This document shows, in pieces, positions 33,547 to 41,697 of a stretch of DNA of 64,000 bases (position 1 is its first letter; each line of letters begins with the position of its first letter). The stretch is from an uncultured Nitrospiraceae bacterium (GTDB lineage Bacteria > Nitrospirota > Thermodesulfovibrionia > Thermodesulfovibrionales > UBA6898). The stretch lies in the NCBI GenBank assembly GCA_963811165.1, contig CAWEQH010000004.1, positions 384,001 through 448,000 on the forward strand, written 5' to 3'. Made by a program: the position numbers and the translations under genes. The notes under the pieces were generated by a model that had not been told where the DNA came from, did not search any database, and saw nothing but the letters and a program-made list of their open reading frames with translations.

Positions 33547-34968
33547 GAAGTTGTCCCGTCCTTTTGTTGAAGTAGAAAGGACCCCGGTTCATTATCCTAA
33601 GCTGCGGCCTCCTTTCTGTCAATGGATTTTTGCTGCAAGGCAGCAATGAGTTTTGGGATTTCCTTATAGCCCTTCACACGCTTAAATTTCTTTTCGGCCC
33701 TTAAGAGGGAAGCTACCGCCCACCTCTGGACCATATCATCGCCCCTCCATCGTTTAACCCTGCCGGTGATCGTCCTTGTCACCGAGAAACAGGACTCTAT
33801 GGGATTGGTCGTCTGGAGAGTCTTCCTCAAGAAGCCCCGTAACTCCAAGCTTGTGTACGGTCAGCGTCTCCTCAAGTCCCTCTTTCAGCGAGGCTGCAGC
33901 GCTCGGGTTCAGCTTCTCAAGATACTTCACCGTCAATTCCAGTGACTTCTTGGCATCGTCATAATCCGCCATCTTGTATGCTGCGCTGATGCGGGCATCT
34001 ATGGCGTGCTGGTGCTCCTTGGGAAGATGATCAAGCACGTTTCTCCGCTTATGCTGCTGGCATCTCTGTACTGCCACATTTGTGCCGAACATCTTGGAAA
34101 CAGCCGATCTCAGGGCCTTCGAACCATCAAGGACAAACAGATAATCCTTCCCGGTGTTCAGCCCTCGCCTGGCTATGTCCTCAAGGAGACTCGTGCATAC
34201 AGTGGCGTTCTCCGTGGCCCCCTGCCAGAGCCCCAGGACATGCTTTCTGCCGCCCTTGTCCAGGCCCAAAGCCACGACAAGCAGATGCCCCTTGAATGCT
34301 ATGCCGTCGATAAATATCGCAACAAGGTCAAGCCCGGCAGAGGTCCCTCTCCAGAAACTCCCTCATCTGTTCCGCCGTAGCCTTCACAAAATGCCTGCTT
34401 ACACTGGATTTCTTTATGCCATAGCCTTTGACGAAGCCCTCAACCGCCTCCTCATAATTGCGGCTCGATATGCCAAGGACCATATTCTTCATTACCGAGT
34501 TCCTCATGCCCCTGGGATCCCGGAAAGCCTGAAACGTTGCAAGCGGAATCTCCTTGTTGTCCTTGCCTCTTAGACGAGGACGGTCTATCAGCACCTTCTG
34601 CTTGTCGTAATATACCGGGCTGAGATCGCTGCCCCACCAATTGGCTGCCCTTAAAGGATTCTTTGAGTCCTTAGCGCCCAGCTATCATCTCGCACTCAGA
34701 ATCCATCGCCGCCGACATGAGCAACAGCCCCGCCTCCTGCGCCAACTCCCTGATTACCTCAGGCAGGCTCTCGATAACCCCAGCCACCGGCAAGGGAAGT
34801 TCCAACAATACACTCCCATCGCCGATCTCCCTTACTTTTCCGTTTGCCTTTTTCTGCATATTCCGATATCTTTTCTTCATAGAAAGCGATCTCCTTTTAG
34901 TTTTTGATCTGGTAATCAATTCTAATCGGGGGTCGCTTCCTACTTCAACAACTTACAGGGGCATCTTC
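33547..34968 (-). mobile_element. IS256-family insertion sequence
   Basis: Imperfect IRs GAAGTTGTCCC..TTGTTGAAGTAG / GAAGATGCCCC..TTGTTGAAGTAG and a 9-bp TSD GGTGTGAAG (33538-33546, 34969-34977). Confidence 0.93.
33597..34880 (-). pseudogene. IS256 (Mutator-type) transposase split by several frameshifts
   Basis: Fragments with GISSRNY, DGSKAL, QRCQQHKRRN and TTNPIES lie in different frames. Confidence 0.9.
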
Positions 34969-36115
34969 GGTGTGAAGTCAACAGGCTGGTGGGTGAGAAA
35001 GGTATTTGTGGTACCGGACGGGCAGCCATGGTGTCGAGCTTCACTCCTCATTTTGGAGAGGAAGACCCTCTGGTGGGGACCGACGGCTCCGGGACCATCT
35101 TTATGACCAATTGCAATCTCCTCTGTGTGTTCTGTCAAAACTGGGAGATCAGCCATCTCGGCGAAGGAAGCGAAGTGGACTCTAAAACCCTCGCCGGCAT
35201 GATGCTGCAACTCCAAAGGCTGGGATGCCATAACATCAATTTCGTTACCCCAACGCACGTAGTCCCTCAGATACTCGATGCCCTGGCTTATGCCGTAGAC
35301 AGCGGTCTCAATGTACCTCTTGTCTACAATACCGGAGGCTATGATTCGGTTGGAACCCTGAAACTTCTGGAAGGGGTTTTTGATATTTATATGCCTGACT
35401 TTAAATTCTGGGACCCTGAGATGGCCCGCAGGTATTTGAAGGCCCCGGATTATCCGGATAGGGCCAAAGATGCTATAAGGGAAATGCATCGGCAGGTGGG
35501 TGATCTCGCCTTGAATGACAAAGGCATCGCGCAAAAGGGGGTCCTCCTGCGCCACCTCGTCATGCCGGAAGGTGTAGCAGGGACGAGAGAGATCATGCGT
35601 TTTATCGCCAGAGAAATCTCACCTGACACGTATGTAAATATAATGGATCAATATCATCCGTGCGGCAAAGCAAGCAAATATCCACCGCTCGACCGCTGTA
35701 TTACCCATGATGAATATGAGGAGGCTCTGAGAGCGGCCCGTGAAGAAGGCATAAGAAGATTTGATAGACGAGAAAGACGGATGAGAATTATTCCCCGGAC
35801 ATGGTGAACCATCCTAAGGTCTGTGGTTGTAGTTGCCACCACGTGACCTGACGGACAATGTCTGAAAAGATCGGCATAAGTGCACTCCTACAAAAAAACA
35901 GAATTGAAAAACTATGTTTATCGGTTGGTTCTCACAGTAACTAACACTCTCGATCACCCCGATTAGACTGAAGAGTACAAGTTGGATTGCTCAGCCAAAT
36001 ACCAAAATGCCAAGCCTGATAATCATATAAAAGGCACCTCCTGAGCATACTGGGTAGTAATTCTGACCTGATATGCTTAGGAAAAGAGACCAATCTCAAC
36101 CTATGGAGGTGCCTT

Positions 36116-37135
36116 ATGAAATTGTACGCGGGAATCGATCTTCATTCAAGCAGCAGTTATCTGGCAATTATTGACGACAAGGGAGTACGGAAGTATAGAA
36201 AAAAACTCCCCAACAACCTTGAAGGAATTCTTCACGAGATGAAGCTGTACAAGAAAGGGATGGCGGGAGTTGTGGTGGAATCGACATACAACTGGTACTG
36301 GCTAGTAGACGGATTGGAGGCAGCGGGGTATGCCGTGCATCTTGCGAATCCCTCGGCGATACAGAAATATAGCGGTCTGAAACATGCCGATGACAAACAC
36401 GATGCCTTCTGGCTTGCTGAGATGCTGAGACTGGGGATCTTGCCCGAGGGCTATATTTATCCGAAGGAGGAGCGTCCATTGCGAGACCTATTGAGGAAAC
36501 GAGGCCACCTGGTAAGACTGAGGACTTCCCTCATTATCAGTCTTCAGAACATCATCAGCAGAAACTGTGGAATCAGGCTCAACGTCAACGATGCCAAACG
36601 GCTCAAAGAGAATCGCGTGACGCCTCATCTTGAGAAAAATGAAGATCTTCGTTTGGCAGGCGCTGTCAGCAAAGAGTCAATCGATTTTCTCACTCGGCAG
36701 ATCAAGAGTATAGAGAAGGTCATCGAGCCAAAGATCGAACTCAAAGATCAGTATAGACAACTCCTCTCTATGCCGGGGATCGGGAAGGTCCTTGCCTTGA
36801 CCATTATGCTTGAGACCGGCCCGATATGCCGGTTCAAAAAAGTTGGTAACTATGTATCATACTGCAGGAAGGTGGGCTCCCAGTGGACCAGTAATGGCAA
36901 GACTAAGGGAAAAGGGAATAAGAAAAACGGCAATAAATATCTGGCATGGGCGTTTTCCGAGGCAGCGGAACTTGCTCGACGGTATGATGCTCAAGTAAGA
37001 GCTTACTATAACCGGAAACTGCAAAAGAGCAATCTCATGGTGGCCCATAGTGCCCTTGCGCACAAGCTTGCACGGGCAGCGTATTACATTATGAGAGATG
37101 AGGTGCCTTTTATGACGGAAAAGTTGTTTTCATAA
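36116..37135 (+). CDS. IS110 DEDD recombinase/transposase
   Basis: GIDLH, VESTY, DKHDA and PGIG motifs, WTSNGK catalytic-Ser region, GNKYL. Intact 339 aa. Confidence 0.95.
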   Translation: MKLYAGIDLHSSSSYLAIIDDKGVRKYRKKLPNNLEGILHEMKLYKKGMAGVVVESTYNWYWLVDGLEAAGYAVHLANPSAIQKYSGLKHADDKHDAFWLAEMLRLGILPEGYIYPKEERPLRDLLRKRGHLVRLRTSLIISLQNIISRNCGIRLNVNDAKRLKENRVTPHLEKNEDLRLAGAVSKESIDFLTRQIKSIEKVIEPKIELKDQYRQLLSMPGIGKVLALTIMLETGPICRFKKVGNYVSYCRKVGSQWTSNGKTKGKGNKKNGNKYLAWAFSEAAELARRYDAQVRAYYNRKLQKSNLMVAHSALAHKLARAAYYIMRDEVPFMTEKLFS

Positions 37136-37420
37136 TAGGATGGCTGGAACGGTGAACCTGTGCAGCGGGGTTGGAAAAACCACTAAGCCTGATTGGAAGC
37201 CGTTCCACCCGGATTGCAGCATCGTTACTGCCCATGTCGCGAGCCTAAACGGGGCTGGTTAATAACCACGAGACCTGTAATCATACACTTGGACGCGATA
37301 TGGAACCGAAGATTTTCTGGGTCGCTGATAGGCGGCAAGGGAGCTGGATATGAAGCTCATCCGGTGTCCTTAATCCTGATGGGTGACTGGTGCAGTATAC
37401 GCTGACACCAAAATGATTGA
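37136..37420 (+). ncRNA. Putative bridge/seek RNA of the IS110 element
   Basis: Stem GGAACGG/CCGTTCC encloses segments that match the flanking target; a later segment matches the element's right end. Boundaries approximate. Confidence 0.7.
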
Positions 37421-37551
37421 AAACATCGGCAAGGGTAATGGTTCGGCAACCGGCGTATGCAGTGCAAGAAAAAATCCTTGTTAAAAAGGATATGGTGAAT
37501 ATTTTGTTCTTGACACGGTGCCTTTTAATGGGTGACCCCGCCATACCTCTT

Positions 37552-38238
37552 TCATCCATATATCACTATTGAATTGGTTTCGGGATCTAGGGCAACCCTA
37601 TCCCCTCTTCTTTTTTCTCCAGAGTACAAATGATCATCCAGAGAATATGCCACTAGAGGCCTAAGACTTCTGCCCGCATATTCAAGTGTCTTGAACAGAT
37701 AACCGATAAATGAGCCCGAATAACGGTAGCGGCGGATACAGCCCTCGATACGCACCTGAATCATATCGTCAAGCCCTTCCCAGCACGATATCTTTGGGTA
37801 CTGCTCGATCCACTCATCGATAGTGAGCCTGACCAATTTAATAATTTCTCGTTTAGCAGCTACGTTTCCTTGTTGAGCGATTCTTACCAGCGCAATGCTG
37901 ATGATATCCCGTATCTGCCTATCGTGGGCATCTGCCGGAGATAGAAACGTATAAAGTTTGTCGTGGTATTTTCTCAGAATAATCTCAACCACCCTTTTGC
38001 CTCTGATGCCTGCTGGAAGTCTGCCCCTGCGTGACGTCTGCCATCTTCGCTGTAATTTGCGGTCCAAAGCACGCGTGAATTTATCCCAATCTATGCCGCC
38101 GCTTTCAGCTCTAATGTTTTTCTGAATGAAACGATAAACATCTGGAGCATGTTGTCGTATCCAGGAACTGCAAAATGTATTGGGCTTTATCGCCCTGAGA
38201 AGCCTGTTTATTGCTCTAACTGAAGAGGCAAAATCCAT
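37552..38238 (-). CDS. Hypothetical protein with a sigma-factor region-1.2/2-like segment
   Basis: ALVRIAQQGNVAAKREII...IRRY...GSFIGYL. Confidence 0.6.
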   Translation of the reverse strand: MDFASSVRAINRLLRAIKPNTFCSSWIRQHAPDVYRFIQKNIRAESGGIDWDKFTRALDRKLQRRWQTSRRGRLPAGIRGKRVVEIILRKYHDKLYTFLSPADAHDRQIRDIISIALVRIAQQGNVAAKREIIKLVRLTIDEWIEQYPKISCWEGLDDMIQVRIEGCIRRYRYSGSFIGYLFKTLEYAGRSLRPLVAYSLDDHLYSGEKRRGDRVALDPETNSIVIYG

Positions 38239-38258: not shown

Positions 38259-38603
38259 TTACTTCTTTCTGTGGACCTCATCATGACAAATAGTGCAAAG
38301 CGTAATTAAATTCTCTGCCGTGTTTTGCCCGGCTTTGGCGTGCTGTTGGATATGATGAAGCTCCAAATGACGCGGATCGGACGGATTCCATTCTGCATGA
38401 CTCCACCGGCATTTTGTACATCTATATTCATCTCGCCTCATTACGGCAGACCTGACAGGGTCAGGAATTCTTCTATCGTGCTCAGGGCTTTGTCTGAGGG
38501 ATTCAAGGACATACGCCCCGACTGCCAAATCTGGCCTACCGGTATTTTTTGTAATAATTGGCCAGCCGAATTCCGTTCTTAACTCACGTACGCGGCGCCC
38601 GAC
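38259..38603 (-). pseudogene. 5'-truncated HNH endonuclease
   Basis: Frame open from 38603 with no start codon: RRVRELRTEFGW...CTKC...LELHH...G.N...NLITLC..CH. Confidence 0.75.
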
Positions 38604-38849
38604 TTAGAATCCTAATTCTCCGTCCTCCATCTCCAGGGCTAAAGAAAGAGCTAAAGCATTTGATAACATAAAGCTTCCATAGTCTTTTGCAAGGCGCAAT
38701 AAATGATCCGCAGCTTTTGGGCTCCAATCTCCATGACTTGAGAGCAATACCTTAATTTTTTCAGGATCACGTATTCCTTTGTCAGTTTTTTTCATTATAA
38801 GGGAGCGATATTCATCCGTCAGTGATTTGATATACTCAGGATTTTCCAT
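38604..38849 (-). CDS. Small hypothetical protein (81 aa)
   Basis: AGGAGAGG RBS; MENPEYIKSL...EDGELGF*. Confidence 0.65.
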   Translation of the reverse strand: MENPEYIKSLTDEYRSLIMKKTDKGIRDPEKIKVLLSSHGDWSPKAADHLLRLAKDYGSFMLSNALALSLALEMEDGELGF

Positions 38850-38869
38850 GCGCCTCTCCTTTCTAAAAC

Positions 38870-39652
38870 TTATTTTTGAAAAACATTTTTGCGGTGCCAT
38901 TCCAAATGACTCTGTGACGGCAGAAATCTTCGCGGTCTGATAATTGGTGCACCTTGATAACAGCAAATCATTTCTTTAATTCTTTTTTCGCCAGACCGCA
39001 GTAGCCGAGTCGAGATCATGATCGAAAGATCGTTTGATATAGTAATAAGCCCGTTATCGAACAGTCGGTCAAATGTGGCGCTTAGACACAAGCCATTATG
39101 TGGATCTGTGCGAAATCGCTCGTCTTTGCTCCAAGGAAGAATGTGACTAGCAACAAGACATTCTCGAACACTCAAACCCGTTATACAGCAACTGTTCTCA
39201 TAACTGCTTAGTACTGTTTCTCGAAAGAAAGCTTGATGTATACGAGCCTTTGCCTTTGCTTCTTTTTCTGATGGACCCTTTGGCAAAGCAAAGTCCTCCT
39301 CTAGGTCTGCCATTACTTTCTCCTTTATTGGGAGCCTATCACGTAATCGTCTTTCTTCGAGAACCAATTGGTTCCAGTTGCTATTAAACTCATCCCATAT
39401 TTCTCGGTCTAGCTTGCTTGCATGAGCAAGTCCTGTTATATGCTGTCGTCCTAGTTCGGGATCGAACGAGCCGAAATTTCCTAACTTTCTCGCAACACTC
39501 GCAGGTGACCTGTTCAGTGCCTTGGCCAATGTTATCACCTCAGGATTATTCGCTTTCGTTTTCTTGAAAGGAATCCGACAATACAATCCAAATGCAAGAA
39601 TCAATTCGTCTCGATTCCAAAGTGAGCCATACTTCTCGGGCCGTCCTTTCAT
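38870..39652 (-). CDS. HNH endonuclease (putative restriction enzyme)
   Basis: QAFFRETVL..Y...CCITG, LVASHILPW and NGLCL...FDRLFDNGLI. Confidence 0.9.
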   Translation of the reverse strand: MKGRPEKYGSLWNRDELILAFGLYCRIPFKKTKANNPEVITLAKALNRSPASVARKLGNFGSFDPELGRQHITGLAHASKLDREIWDEFNSNWNQLVLEERRLRDRLPIKEKVMADLEEDFALPKGPSEKEAKAKARIHQAFFRETVLSSYENSCCITGLSVRECLVASHILPWSKDERFRTDPHNGLCLSATFDRLFDNGLITISNDLSIMISTRLLRSGEKRIKEMICCYQGAPIIRPRRFLPSQSHLEWHRKNVFQK

Positions 39653-39656
39653 CTAT

Positions 39657-40781
39657 TCAAACCTCCCCACGTGGACTGAAAGAATCAGGAAAACTCTGAA
39701 GTCTTGCAGCCTCCCTGTGCGTTATGGGGCGGTGTTGCCCTGGATGGAGATATCGGCCTTTTTCAGGCTTAAAAAACTCCGTCCTGATTGTAAAGGCAGG
39801 TCTGTCCCACCATAATCGGCCAAATAGATCGGTGCCGCCTGTTTTTTTTCTTATCCAGCATCCCGGCGTTAAGTCTGGAGCCCGTTTCAACAGATCAAAA
39901 CGGTTCATGCCCTCTTTCGGTATAGCCCTGTAACGCTTTACGCTGAGCGGTGTCGGAGACCTGCCGAAATGAAGGTCCAAAGGCGGCGCTTCATAGCGAA
40001 TATCGGTCCCGACAGGAGGGGGCAAATCTCCAATCAGATCTCTGACTGTCCTCCATCTTTGAGGCGTCGAAAGATAATCTTCTTTGTCGAATAAATTTAT
40101 AGTCGGCTGCCGTCCGTTTCCGTTGGGGTTGAAATGAGTTTTTCTGGGCGGAAATATAAAATTAGGATCTGATATTTTCGACCCTATTATAAAGGCTCGC
40201 CAACGAGTTTGAGGTACGCCATAATCCGCTGCACACAACTTACCATGACATATTTTATTAAATCCGAGTTTAGCAGCCATACCGACTATTTCGCCATGTT
40301 CGAAGCTGCCGAGAATTTGCGGAACATTCTCTATGACAAACACTTTTGCTCCCGACCTTTCGACTACTTCCAAAAAAGGCCTCCACAATTGATTCCGGGG
40401 ATCATCTTCCCTGTTTTTATTAAGTAAGCTGAACCCTTGGCACGGAGGGCCTCCGATGACGACATCTGCGCGCGGTATTTCTACAGAGGGCTCATTCAGC
40501 AGGTCGACAATGTCGCCTTGCACACAATGATCGCCGAAATTTTCATTATATGTATCTATGCAGTATTTATTATTGTCATTGGCCCACACCGACTTGAAAT
40601 GATGGCCGAAACTCTCGGTGAACCCGAGAGTCATTCCACCGGCACCACAGAAAAGATCAATTAATTTGAACCGTTTACTTGGTTTTGTGAGTTTGTTTTT
40701 AGCTCGGGCTTTGTAGGTAGCCTGATCTTCCTTTATGAGATGCTTCTTGATTGAACTATTACTTTTATATCTTATGGCCAT
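39657..40781 (-). CDS. DNA (cytosine-5)-methyltransferase, apparently lacking motif X
   Basis: DLFCGAGG, GGPPCQGFS, ENV, QTRWR and REAARLQSFPD, then an abrupt SPRGEV* with no GNAV motif. Confidence 0.88.
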   Translation of the reverse strand: MAIRYKSNSSIKKHLIKEDQATYKARAKNKLTKPSKRFKLIDLFCGAGGMTLGFTESFGHHFKSVWANDNNKYCIDTYNENFGDHCVQGDIVDLLNEPSVEIPRADVVIGGPPCQGFSLLNKNREDDPRNQLWRPFLEVVERSGAKVFVIENVPQILGSFEHGEIVGMAAKLGFNKICHGKLCAADYGVPQTRWRAFIIGSKISDPNFIFPPRKTHFNPNGNGRQPTINLFDKEDYLSTPQRWRTVRDLIGDLPPPVGTDIRYEAPPLDLHFGRSPTPLSVKRYRAIPKEGMNRFDLLKRAPDLTPGCWIRKKTGGTDLFGRLWWDRPAFTIRTEFFKPEKGRYLHPGQHRPITHREAARLQSFPDSFSPRGEV

Positions 40782-40890
40782 AACTCACTTGCTGTATTAT
40801 AGAATATTTTCAGTAAGACAGGTGAACGGAGATGCGCTTTAAGGACGGGAAGATTACAACGTCCTTGACGGAATTCCGGGGTGCTTGTAA

Positions 40891-41697
40891 TCAGGTGGCC
40901 CTTGGATCAAGATATGCCGCCTTCCTCCGAGAATCTGCATTCTTTGTATGCGCCTTTTTCCACCTGAAGTATCTCTGTACCTCGGCAGCGCACGGATGAG
41001 ATGGAAGTGAACATACACGCTCCCATGTGGTCTGAAGAAATCTGATCCCAGGCGGAACAGGATTTGCGAATGCGTCAGAGAAGAGACTCAGGCCGACAAC
41101 TGCTCTGACCGAAGCGGCCGGGAAAAGACGCTGCGAGTAATTCTTCAGAAACTCCCCTCGTAACTGAATCTGATCCTTGTCTTTCTGTTTCCCTTGTGAT
41201 CTCCCAACGCCGGATCGCCATTTTGCCTCGTCAAGAACAACAGCATTCCGGGTTATAATCCCAAAGTCGATCTCGGGTCCTCCTACGCTTAGAGTGTCAG
41301 GGTGAGGAATTCTTCGCCAGAGAATGACCTCGGCGTGATCGGCAGATGCACTTGGAAGGTTCAGCAGTCGAAAGAGATCGGTAAGCCAGCTTTTCAATAT
41401 ATCTCGCTGAGCCCGAGCGGCAGTGCCAAACACCGACCAGGTGATGGCGTCTTCACTGTGAAGAGACTGAAGGTCACAATAGTATCCAAGGCCTGATTCG
41501 CAGATTGCTCGCTGGTTATCGTCAAAGGCATGAACCTGTCGACTCTGATAAAGTTTTTGAACCACCTCAGGCGCGGGCCATGGATCACAACCCGTCCGAA
41601 TTAGGTTGTCGAACGGGTGCGCCGCTACACAAACGCCGCCTTTGCTATGCGCAAATGTCATTTTTTTGCCGTTCCAATCCTTCATTATTTGAATCAT
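40891..41697 (-). CDS. Hypothetical protein with a PD-(D/E)xK nuclease-like motif
   Basis: SEDAITWSVF and PEID...DEAKW...DQ. Confidence 0.6.
   Translation of the reverse strand: MIQIMKDWNGKKMTFAHSKGGVCVAAHPFDNLIRTGCDPWPAPEVVQKLYQSRQVHAFDDNQRAICESGLGYYCDLQSLHSEDAITWSVFGTAARAQRDILKSWLTDLFRLLNLPSASADHAEVILWRRIPHPDTLSVGGPEIDFGIITRNAVVLDEAKWRSGVGRSQGKQKDKDQIQLRGEFLKNYSQRLFPAASVRAVVGLSLFSDAFANPVPPGIRFLQTTWERVCSLPSHPCAAEVQRYFRWKKAHTKNADSRRKAAYLDPRAT

Follow-up and report, generated by a model that had tools for sequence, protein, structure and literature searches.

In the window analysed here, a stretch of 64,000 nucleotides from a contig of an uncultured Nitrospiraceae bacterium, an IS110-family element at 36012..37541 carries several short stretches downstream of its recombinase gene that match either the insertion site or the ends of the element. 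The locus thus raises the question which of these stretches would guide the recombinase, and to which DNA. As first described, the element is a textbook case; the novelty is a conserved second target-type loop, placed between the other two modules and unnoticed in the first-pass annotation. The right end would form one predicted bridge RNA with three related stem-loop modules, which we call loop 1, loop 2 and the donor loop (loop 3). All coordinates below are on the plus strand.

Since each of the matches of 7-8 bases arises on its own in 0.5-3 % of shuffled right ends, relatives have to decide. The clade is large: of 8,000 candidate proteins scored, 7,987 reach E ≤ 1e-60. From 441 genome loci and from 556 metagenome loci the best 80 each were taken, which together with the window made a set of 161 loci, and both target-type modules were parsed in 130 of them, corresponding to 110 guide types. 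A wider set, with more genome loci added, comprises 190 loci (154 parsed, 124 guide types). Three duplicate loci were removed from the wider set and several of its right ends remain mis-parsed, so figures for the right side come mainly from the 161-locus set; in the comparison on that set the right ends of L038 and L044 and the donor loops of L111 and L119 were left out as mis-parsed. Flank matches were controlled by 20,000 shuffles, and folds by 500 shuffles and by slid structures. A FastTree protein tree with 118 tips was used only for the test of co-change between loops 1 and 2. Published systems are described from the available parts of PMC11208160, PMC11187229, PMC11208158, PMC13626964, PMC13604230, PMC12288879, 10.1101/2025.05.14.653916, 10.1101/2025.10.25.684509, 10.64898/2026.10.21.760802, 10.64898/2026.08.14.744561 and 10.64898/2026.08.31.748434.

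The element is intact. Its uninterrupted reading frame (36116..37135) encodes a DEDD recombinase of 339 amino acids with the N-terminal DEDD domain PF01548 and the C-terminal domain PF02371, which bears the catalytic serine, a feature of IS110-family membership, and scores above the cut-off of the NCBIfam IS110 model NF033542. The residues D8/E55/D93/D96/S259 are retained in 103-106 of 106 relatives. The left end is short (36019..36115, 97 nt, beginning with ATAATC) and the right end measures about 400 nt, so the non-coding stretch 3′ of the gene is long, as in the IS1111 group. Near both ends we found a perfect 11-bp inverted repeat, TAAAAGGCACC at 36028..36038 and GGTGCCTTTTA at 37517..37527, which was absent from the first-pass annotation. 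In 91 relatives the longest perfect match of this repeat is mostly 7-12 bp, and both arms vary in concert in relatives such as L042, L049 and L059. The claim of a complete IS1111-type element is borne out by the open frame, the family domains, the catalytic residues and the sub-terminal repeats, and all motifs named earlier lie where they had been placed (TGA at 36017-19 and 37533-35, GCGGGGT at 37165-71, AAGCCTGA at 37185-92, ATGGGTGA at 37379-86 and TAATCATA at 37278-85), as does the stem 37146-52/37200-07. We regard the element as almost certainly an IS1111-type member of IS110 guided by loop 1, its place in the IS1111 clade being suggested by protein length and by the ISGsu4-family annotation of relatives with 48 % identity. 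It is present in a single copy in its own 3.66-Mb assembly, where blastn and tblastn found no further copies. No Rfam family reached the gathering threshold across the element; one tRNA did so elsewhere in the window.

Loop 1 (37142..37209), delimited by covariation, alignment and fold, is the main target-binding module. It contains a top-strand guide GCGGGGT (37165-71), a hairpin (37172-82), a bottom-strand guide AAGCCTG (37185-91) and a handshake-like AT (37192-93). The first guide is complementary to the right target half ACCCCGC (37535..37541), and the second matches the left target half AAGCC (36012..36016), the match reaching 36010 with one G-U pair. Among relatives, 4.53 of the 5 bases that adjoin the core on its left agreed with the second segment of loop 1, against 2.65 in shuffled pairings (86 types), and the first segment matched the right flank with 4.55 against 3.81 (89 types). 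None of 20,000 shuffles equalled either score; permutation P values of this kind are overstated, because kin loci are not independent. Non-consensus bases of the left flank were matched by loop 1 115 out of 128 times, and distinct reprogramming of loop 1 was seen in many separate lineages. The two segments had been proposed as a target guide, with covariation across homologues as the suggested check, and they do vary with both flanks in 86-89 guide types. Seven distant relatives (L196, L198, L193, L279, L280, L282 and L283) have the small inter-guide hairpin enlarged to 15-90 nt in one or the other loop, with the guides in place.

The top-strand match of loop 1 precedes the bottom-strand match, as in the IS1111 group. 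The earlier reading of the target in opposite orientation to the gene was thus correct but not new, as it is the published IS1111 order, which according to the available text of PMC11187229 holds for all IS1111 elements tested. The elements ISEc11, ISKpn4, ISPa11 and ISPst6 are alike in this order and in their long non-coding 3′ region, and also in the 11-bp sub-terminal repeats, the 339-aa DEDD protein and a junction promoter, here a predicted one (PMC11187229, in the parts available).

An empty-site homologue was found in the same-genus genome G004 (113 bp, 80 % identity over the junction) with a single TG, in agreement with the empty site that had been reconstructed by removing the element; G012 and contig C1 of the same assembly as the element hold stretches resembling the empty site. 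Both junctions, here at 36017..36018 and 37533..37534, read TG in 90 of 105 loci. The base that follows the right-junction TG is C, T or G in 18 of 118 loci, so the A is part of the element at the left junction and part of the target at the right one, and the comparison of loci gives TG as the core, not the TGA that had been described. The two bases following the core match in loop 1 equal the start of the left end in 126 of 132 loci, where the parser had fixed an A at the first handshake base of loop 1 and at the first left-end base, so that these columns, like the G fixed at -1 of loop 2, are not evidence. In two plasmid relatives the post-core bases of loop 1 change along with the start of the left end.

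The layout of loop 1 is repeated at 37232..37303, with a stem, a G-rich segment, a TGG/CCA hairpin and a guide that ends in TG. This second target-type module, loop 2, is recognised by alignment, fold and co-change on the tree, and consists of GGGGC (37251-55), a hairpin (37256-68), CGAGACCTG (37269-77) and a variable tail (37278-89) that contains TAATCATA. In the predicted structure loop 1 is a separate hairpin, and loop 2 and the donor loop lie together in a single multi-branch domain (37227..37396) bounded by a closing helix (37227-31/37392-96). The conserved structure was drawn from the fold of the window and tested on 30 sequences, in which 25 of 48 pairs showed double changes and 90.8 % of cells were paired; none of 500 shuffles equalled this, and slid controls paired at 31-49 %. 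The closing helix (helix 4) was paired in 95.6 % of cells, with double changes in 2 pairs. With three modules, against exactly two binding loops in the IS621-type bridge RNA, we class the RNA as a variant and not as IS621-type.

Loop 2 was parsed in 154 of the 190 loci. Of the unparsed loci, 22 had enough sequence, and 14 of these were read by eye: loop 2 was present in 10, interrupted in 3, and in 1 a fused single module was found. Seven of the other eight had been parsed in the 161-locus set, and one was truncated. By eye, the layout is also seen in relatives with about 50 %, 48 % (annotated as ISGsu4 family) and 34 % protein identity. In the right end of L098, the 5′ half of loop 1 runs into the 3′ end of loop 2, with an unrelated hairpin between them; this is a natural single-module derivative, possibly a dead one.

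Which DNA loop 2 follows was judged against the flanks. Where the two loops differ, the left flank agrees 102 times with loop 1, 11 times with loop 2 and 15 times with neither. Of 90 loci, loop 1 fits better in 84 and loop 2 in 1, and 5 are tied; in the wider set loop 1 is better in 87 and loop 2 in 5 of 112 loci by strict count, some right ends being mis-parsed there. These counts speak against the idea that loop 2 is a second full insertion guide, which would give the element two alternative specificities and usually keeps the common repeat target of the clade while loop 1 diversifies. The distal positions of loop 2 do remain near the flank consensus, in line with this idea, and a few sites (L053, L220 and L261/L263) suit loop 2 better, or completely if G-U pairs are allowed. 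These exceptions could, however, be explained by later mutation of loop 1 or by mobilisation by another copy. Moreover, when the flank departs from consensus at position -5, loop 2 follows in only 2 of 36 types and loop 1 in 34, and loop 2 lacks a conserved handshake AT. We consider a second full guide unlikely; a part-time role of loop 2 in insertion is possible.

The pattern along the guide is uneven. Where the flank departs from consensus, loop 2 follows it in 34 of 38 types at -3, in 24 of 37 at -4 and in only 6 of 88 at -5 to -7. On the 118-tip tree, loops 1 and 2 changed at -3 on the same branch 23.3 times against 7.1 expected, and 22.5 of these changes were to the same base. No excess of co-change was found on this tree at -4, -5, -6 and -8 or in the hairpin loop, and at -7 the value was 3.0 against 1.4 expected (uncorrected P 0.04). 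The two -3 positions share 1.07 bits of mutual information, compared with 0.28 for the next RNA column and 0.44 for the best protein column, and none of the RNA or protein columns scanned accounted for the coupling. On the other side of the core, 32 types have right guides that differ from consensus, and in these the first segment of loop 2 scored 2.81 of 4 (shuffled 2.14) and loop 1 scored 3.59 (shuffled 2.07); from these comparisons loop 2 appears to track the right side weakly.

The same data bear on the proposal that loop 2, left behind by a module duplication, is structural or binds protein, pairs with no DNA and owes its likeness to loop 1 to ancestry and occasional gene conversion. The left guides of the two loops are identical in 2 of 124 types, as conversion would leave them, and the near-identical copies within one genome are mosaics, so copies do recombine. 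In that genome (G186) the copies L186, L210-L213, L264 and L266 have 0-5 amino-acid differences and distinct loop 1 and loop 2 guides, and one of them is pieced together, as a mosaic, from two others. In 6 types a wobble T at -3 of loop 1 stands over a C in the flank, and loop 2 carries a T as well in 5 of these; at such sites reading of the target by loop 2 is inseparable from copying of loop 1. Conversion should take neighbouring bases along, yet the excess of co-change is found only at -3; the hairpin loops are identical in none of 154 loci; the coupling is explained by no RNA or protein column; and TG and stem are retained down to about 34 % protein identity. We therefore think a remnant without DNA pairing improbable.

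We consider it roughly an even call that loop 2 is an auxiliary, recombinase-bound loop which would pair over a short distance and work with the donor loop, probably at the occupied site. The suggestion that it works with the donor loop comes from their position in one folded domain. Loop 2 likely pairs with only a few target bases adjoining the TG core, and probably acts on the junctions of the integrated element while the circle forms. In IS621 the cut adjoins the core on the strand held by the corresponding guide (PMC11208158, available text), and by this analogy -3 would be the base beside the cut. The two handshake positions of loop 2 are not conserved in the wider set. The tail of loop 2 was also considered as a handshake for excision and discarded, as it is not conserved among loci. 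Without a conserved handshake, neither a role in insertion nor one in clean excision fits. According to the available parts of the sources, a short target-only RNA of 82 nt is sufficient for transposition of ISEc11 (PMC11187229) and excision of IS621 can run on donor-only recognition (10.64898/2026.08.31.748434), which means that loop 2 may be dispensable for both steps. As a tentative generalisation, somewhat doubtful in our view, a large ISGsu4-like clade of IS1111 elements may divide the labour within a three-loop bridge RNA: a long-pairing loop would seek out new sites, and a second target loop, which folds with the donor loop, would check no more than the bases at the cut and so permit excision or strand transfer out of the occupied site, a third recombinase dimer possibly taking part.

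The donor loop matches the element's two ends and likely holds them. Its right-end guide ATGGGTG is followed by a handshake-like AC (37379..37387), and the base after ATGGGTG is the same as the first base of the right flank in 95 of 98 guide types; where this flank base is not A, the two agree in 14 of 17 cases. This upholds the earlier proposal of ATGGGTG as a donor guide. The second handshake base tracks a non-C flank in only 1 of 9 cases. These cross-matches of donor loop and loop 1 are the pattern predicted by the IS621 handshake (PMC11208158, available text). The partner of ATGGGTG had been sought in TAATCATA, a candidate we rejected: TAATCA occurs in the region in 3 of 130 loci, and the segment, which lies in the variable tail of loop 2, has the wrong strand sense, as it and ATGGGTG would both pair with one strand. 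GATTTTC (37311..37317) is the likely partner, 6/7 complementary to GATAATC of the left end, where a U-T mismatch is retained; covariation is weak, and this is the weakest part of the assignment. In seven distant relatives the segment fits altered left ends at 5-7 of 7 bases including G-U pairs. The donor loop has one arm matching 7/7 with handshake covariation and another matching 6/7 with a fixed mismatch.

We deem it very unlikely that the element has an ordinary seekRNA, in which loop 1 alone matters, the protein reads the ends via the sub-terminal repeats and ATGGGTG is no donor guide: the 82-nt RNA is enough for ISEc11 movement (PMC11187229, available text), the donor match is nearly invariant and offers little covariation, and the second donor guide has its fixed mismatch, but the base after ATGGGTG tracks the right flank in those 14 of 17 non-A cases as a donor-loop handshake predicts (PMC11208158, available text), a G-to-A change of the right end has its counterpart in the loop in 5 types, with 6 types discordant (some right ends being mis-parsed), and the other donor segment fits the altered left ends. 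The available texts of the seekRNA and bridge-RNA papers disagree on a working donor loop in IS1111-type RNA, and handshake covariation in nature is evidence for such a loop at the level of sequence.

Several published RNAs can be set beside this one. In the ISEc11 group the RNAs are short (82-96 nt) or long (about 150-170 nt) with one target match (PMC11187229 and PMC13604230, in the parts available), whereas here about 255 nt are structured and comprise two loops of target type besides a donor loop. IS621 and ISCro4/IS622 share with the system predicted here a target and a donor loop, a dinucleotide core, handshake bases that cross-pair after strand exchange, and catalytic DEDD plus Ser residues; they differ in an RNA of two loops that comes from the left end and has its guides in reverse order, and in a CT core (available text of PMC11208160, PMC11208158, PMC13626964 and 10.1101/2025.05.14.653916), and their proteins are distant from this recombinase (E about 1e-8). 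A further group is that of ISGsu4, ISGsu5, ISShfr7 and ISShwo5 (ISfinder names): plasmid proteins of 48 % identity, annotated as ISGsu4 family, have the same three-module right end by eye, and it is on these annotated relatives that the likeness rests. The group is one row in the phylogeny table of Durrant et al., who in the available text place IS1111 donor bases in a multi-loop and mention no second target loop (PMC11208160). The second pathway of CazIS110-1 is alike in that two target loops act in one pathway, a full bridge RNA working together with a separate target-loop RNA, but there a truncated version of the same RNA supplies the extra loop and here two distinct target-type loops stand in tandem (10.1101/2025.10.25.684509, available text).

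An RNA with two target loops did not appear in the available text of the bridge-RNA and seekRNA literature, of which figures and supplements may show a third loop; a motif search in the part of the Durrant supplements covered gave no second target loop. The Evo-PIN preprint, in its available part, describes many deviating structures. Together with the coupling at a single position, loop 2 suggests that some bridge recombinases divide the reading of the target between two loops. This would bear on the bias between excision and insertion and on the design and trimming of guides for IS1111-type editors. The large clade offers many natural guide-target pairs, and the copies in G186 suit insertion-site logos.

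From IS621 and ISEc11 the course of transposition can be sketched. The joined ends would make a promoter, and RNA would arise by read-through or by transcription from this junction promoter. The transcript would be processed and its loops bound by recombinase dimers. The circle would insert at sites matching loop 1, which likely selects the site and would act as the seeker during insertion, and the strands would be exchanged at TG with handshake pairing. As had been claimed, the joined ends read TTGACA-N18-GATAAT. The -35 hexamer TTGACA lies at 37510..37515 and the left end gives the -10 half as well as the right donor arm. The spacer is 17 or 18 in 75 of 91 relatives and GATAAT is kept in 78 of 85, so the consensus of this predicted circle-junction promoter is conserved. 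The right end has no plus-strand sigma-70 match that could be an internal promoter. We found no circle junction in the contigs of 4 of 21 runs or in 283 loci, assemblies rarely retaining such circles, and none of 75 pattern matches (70 in viral contigs, 5 in genomes) had the context of the ends.

The 5′ part of the element forms a hairpin (36031..36115, -36.8 kcal/mol, z -6.4), in which 36031-41, including the inner half of the left repeat, pairs with the ribosome-binding site at 36105-15, and relatives show compensatory changes by eye. The stem would also form in transcripts that start at the junction promoter, and this suggests that translation of the recombinase is damped. At the opposite end, the last 15 or so bases (repeat arm and GGGTG) are tandemly duplicated in L042, L043, L059, L038, L044 and L265, perhaps by recombination at an internal core-like site. 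In L002-L006, L010, L011, L014, L026, L068 and L069 the stop codon and loop 1 are separated by a shared structured insert of about 200-350 nt, and a stretch resembling it sits after the donor loop in L038 and L052; the insert may be a small mobile element.

Regarding insertion history, a nearly identical left part of the element occurs in one sequencing run, where the upstream flank begins to diverge 23 bases from the junction, and L001, with a protein 90 % identical, has the same target sequence in another context. Together they suggest independent insertions. Extra copies of the common target motif of the clade are present in the flanks of 12 of 140 loci, where about one site is expected, and 11 of 161 loci have a Y1-transposase-like gene no more than 1 kb away; with the query used, no such gene was found in the assembly of the element. 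This suggests that the clade often targets REP-like repeats, and the repeat target and the Y1-transposase-like gene may be of the REP/RAYT kind. The literature search on the target motif returned unrelated papers only.

The flanks 35700-35981 and 37550-37900 have homologous stretches elsewhere in the same assembly (C5 91 %, C8 83 %), which places the element at a patchwork junction. A Mutator-family transposase lies in pieces upstream (33597-34919). Downstream, at 38259-41697, we identified two HNH proteins, a C5 DNA methylase and two reading frames without a Pfam match, a cluster resembling a restriction-modification or defence cluster.
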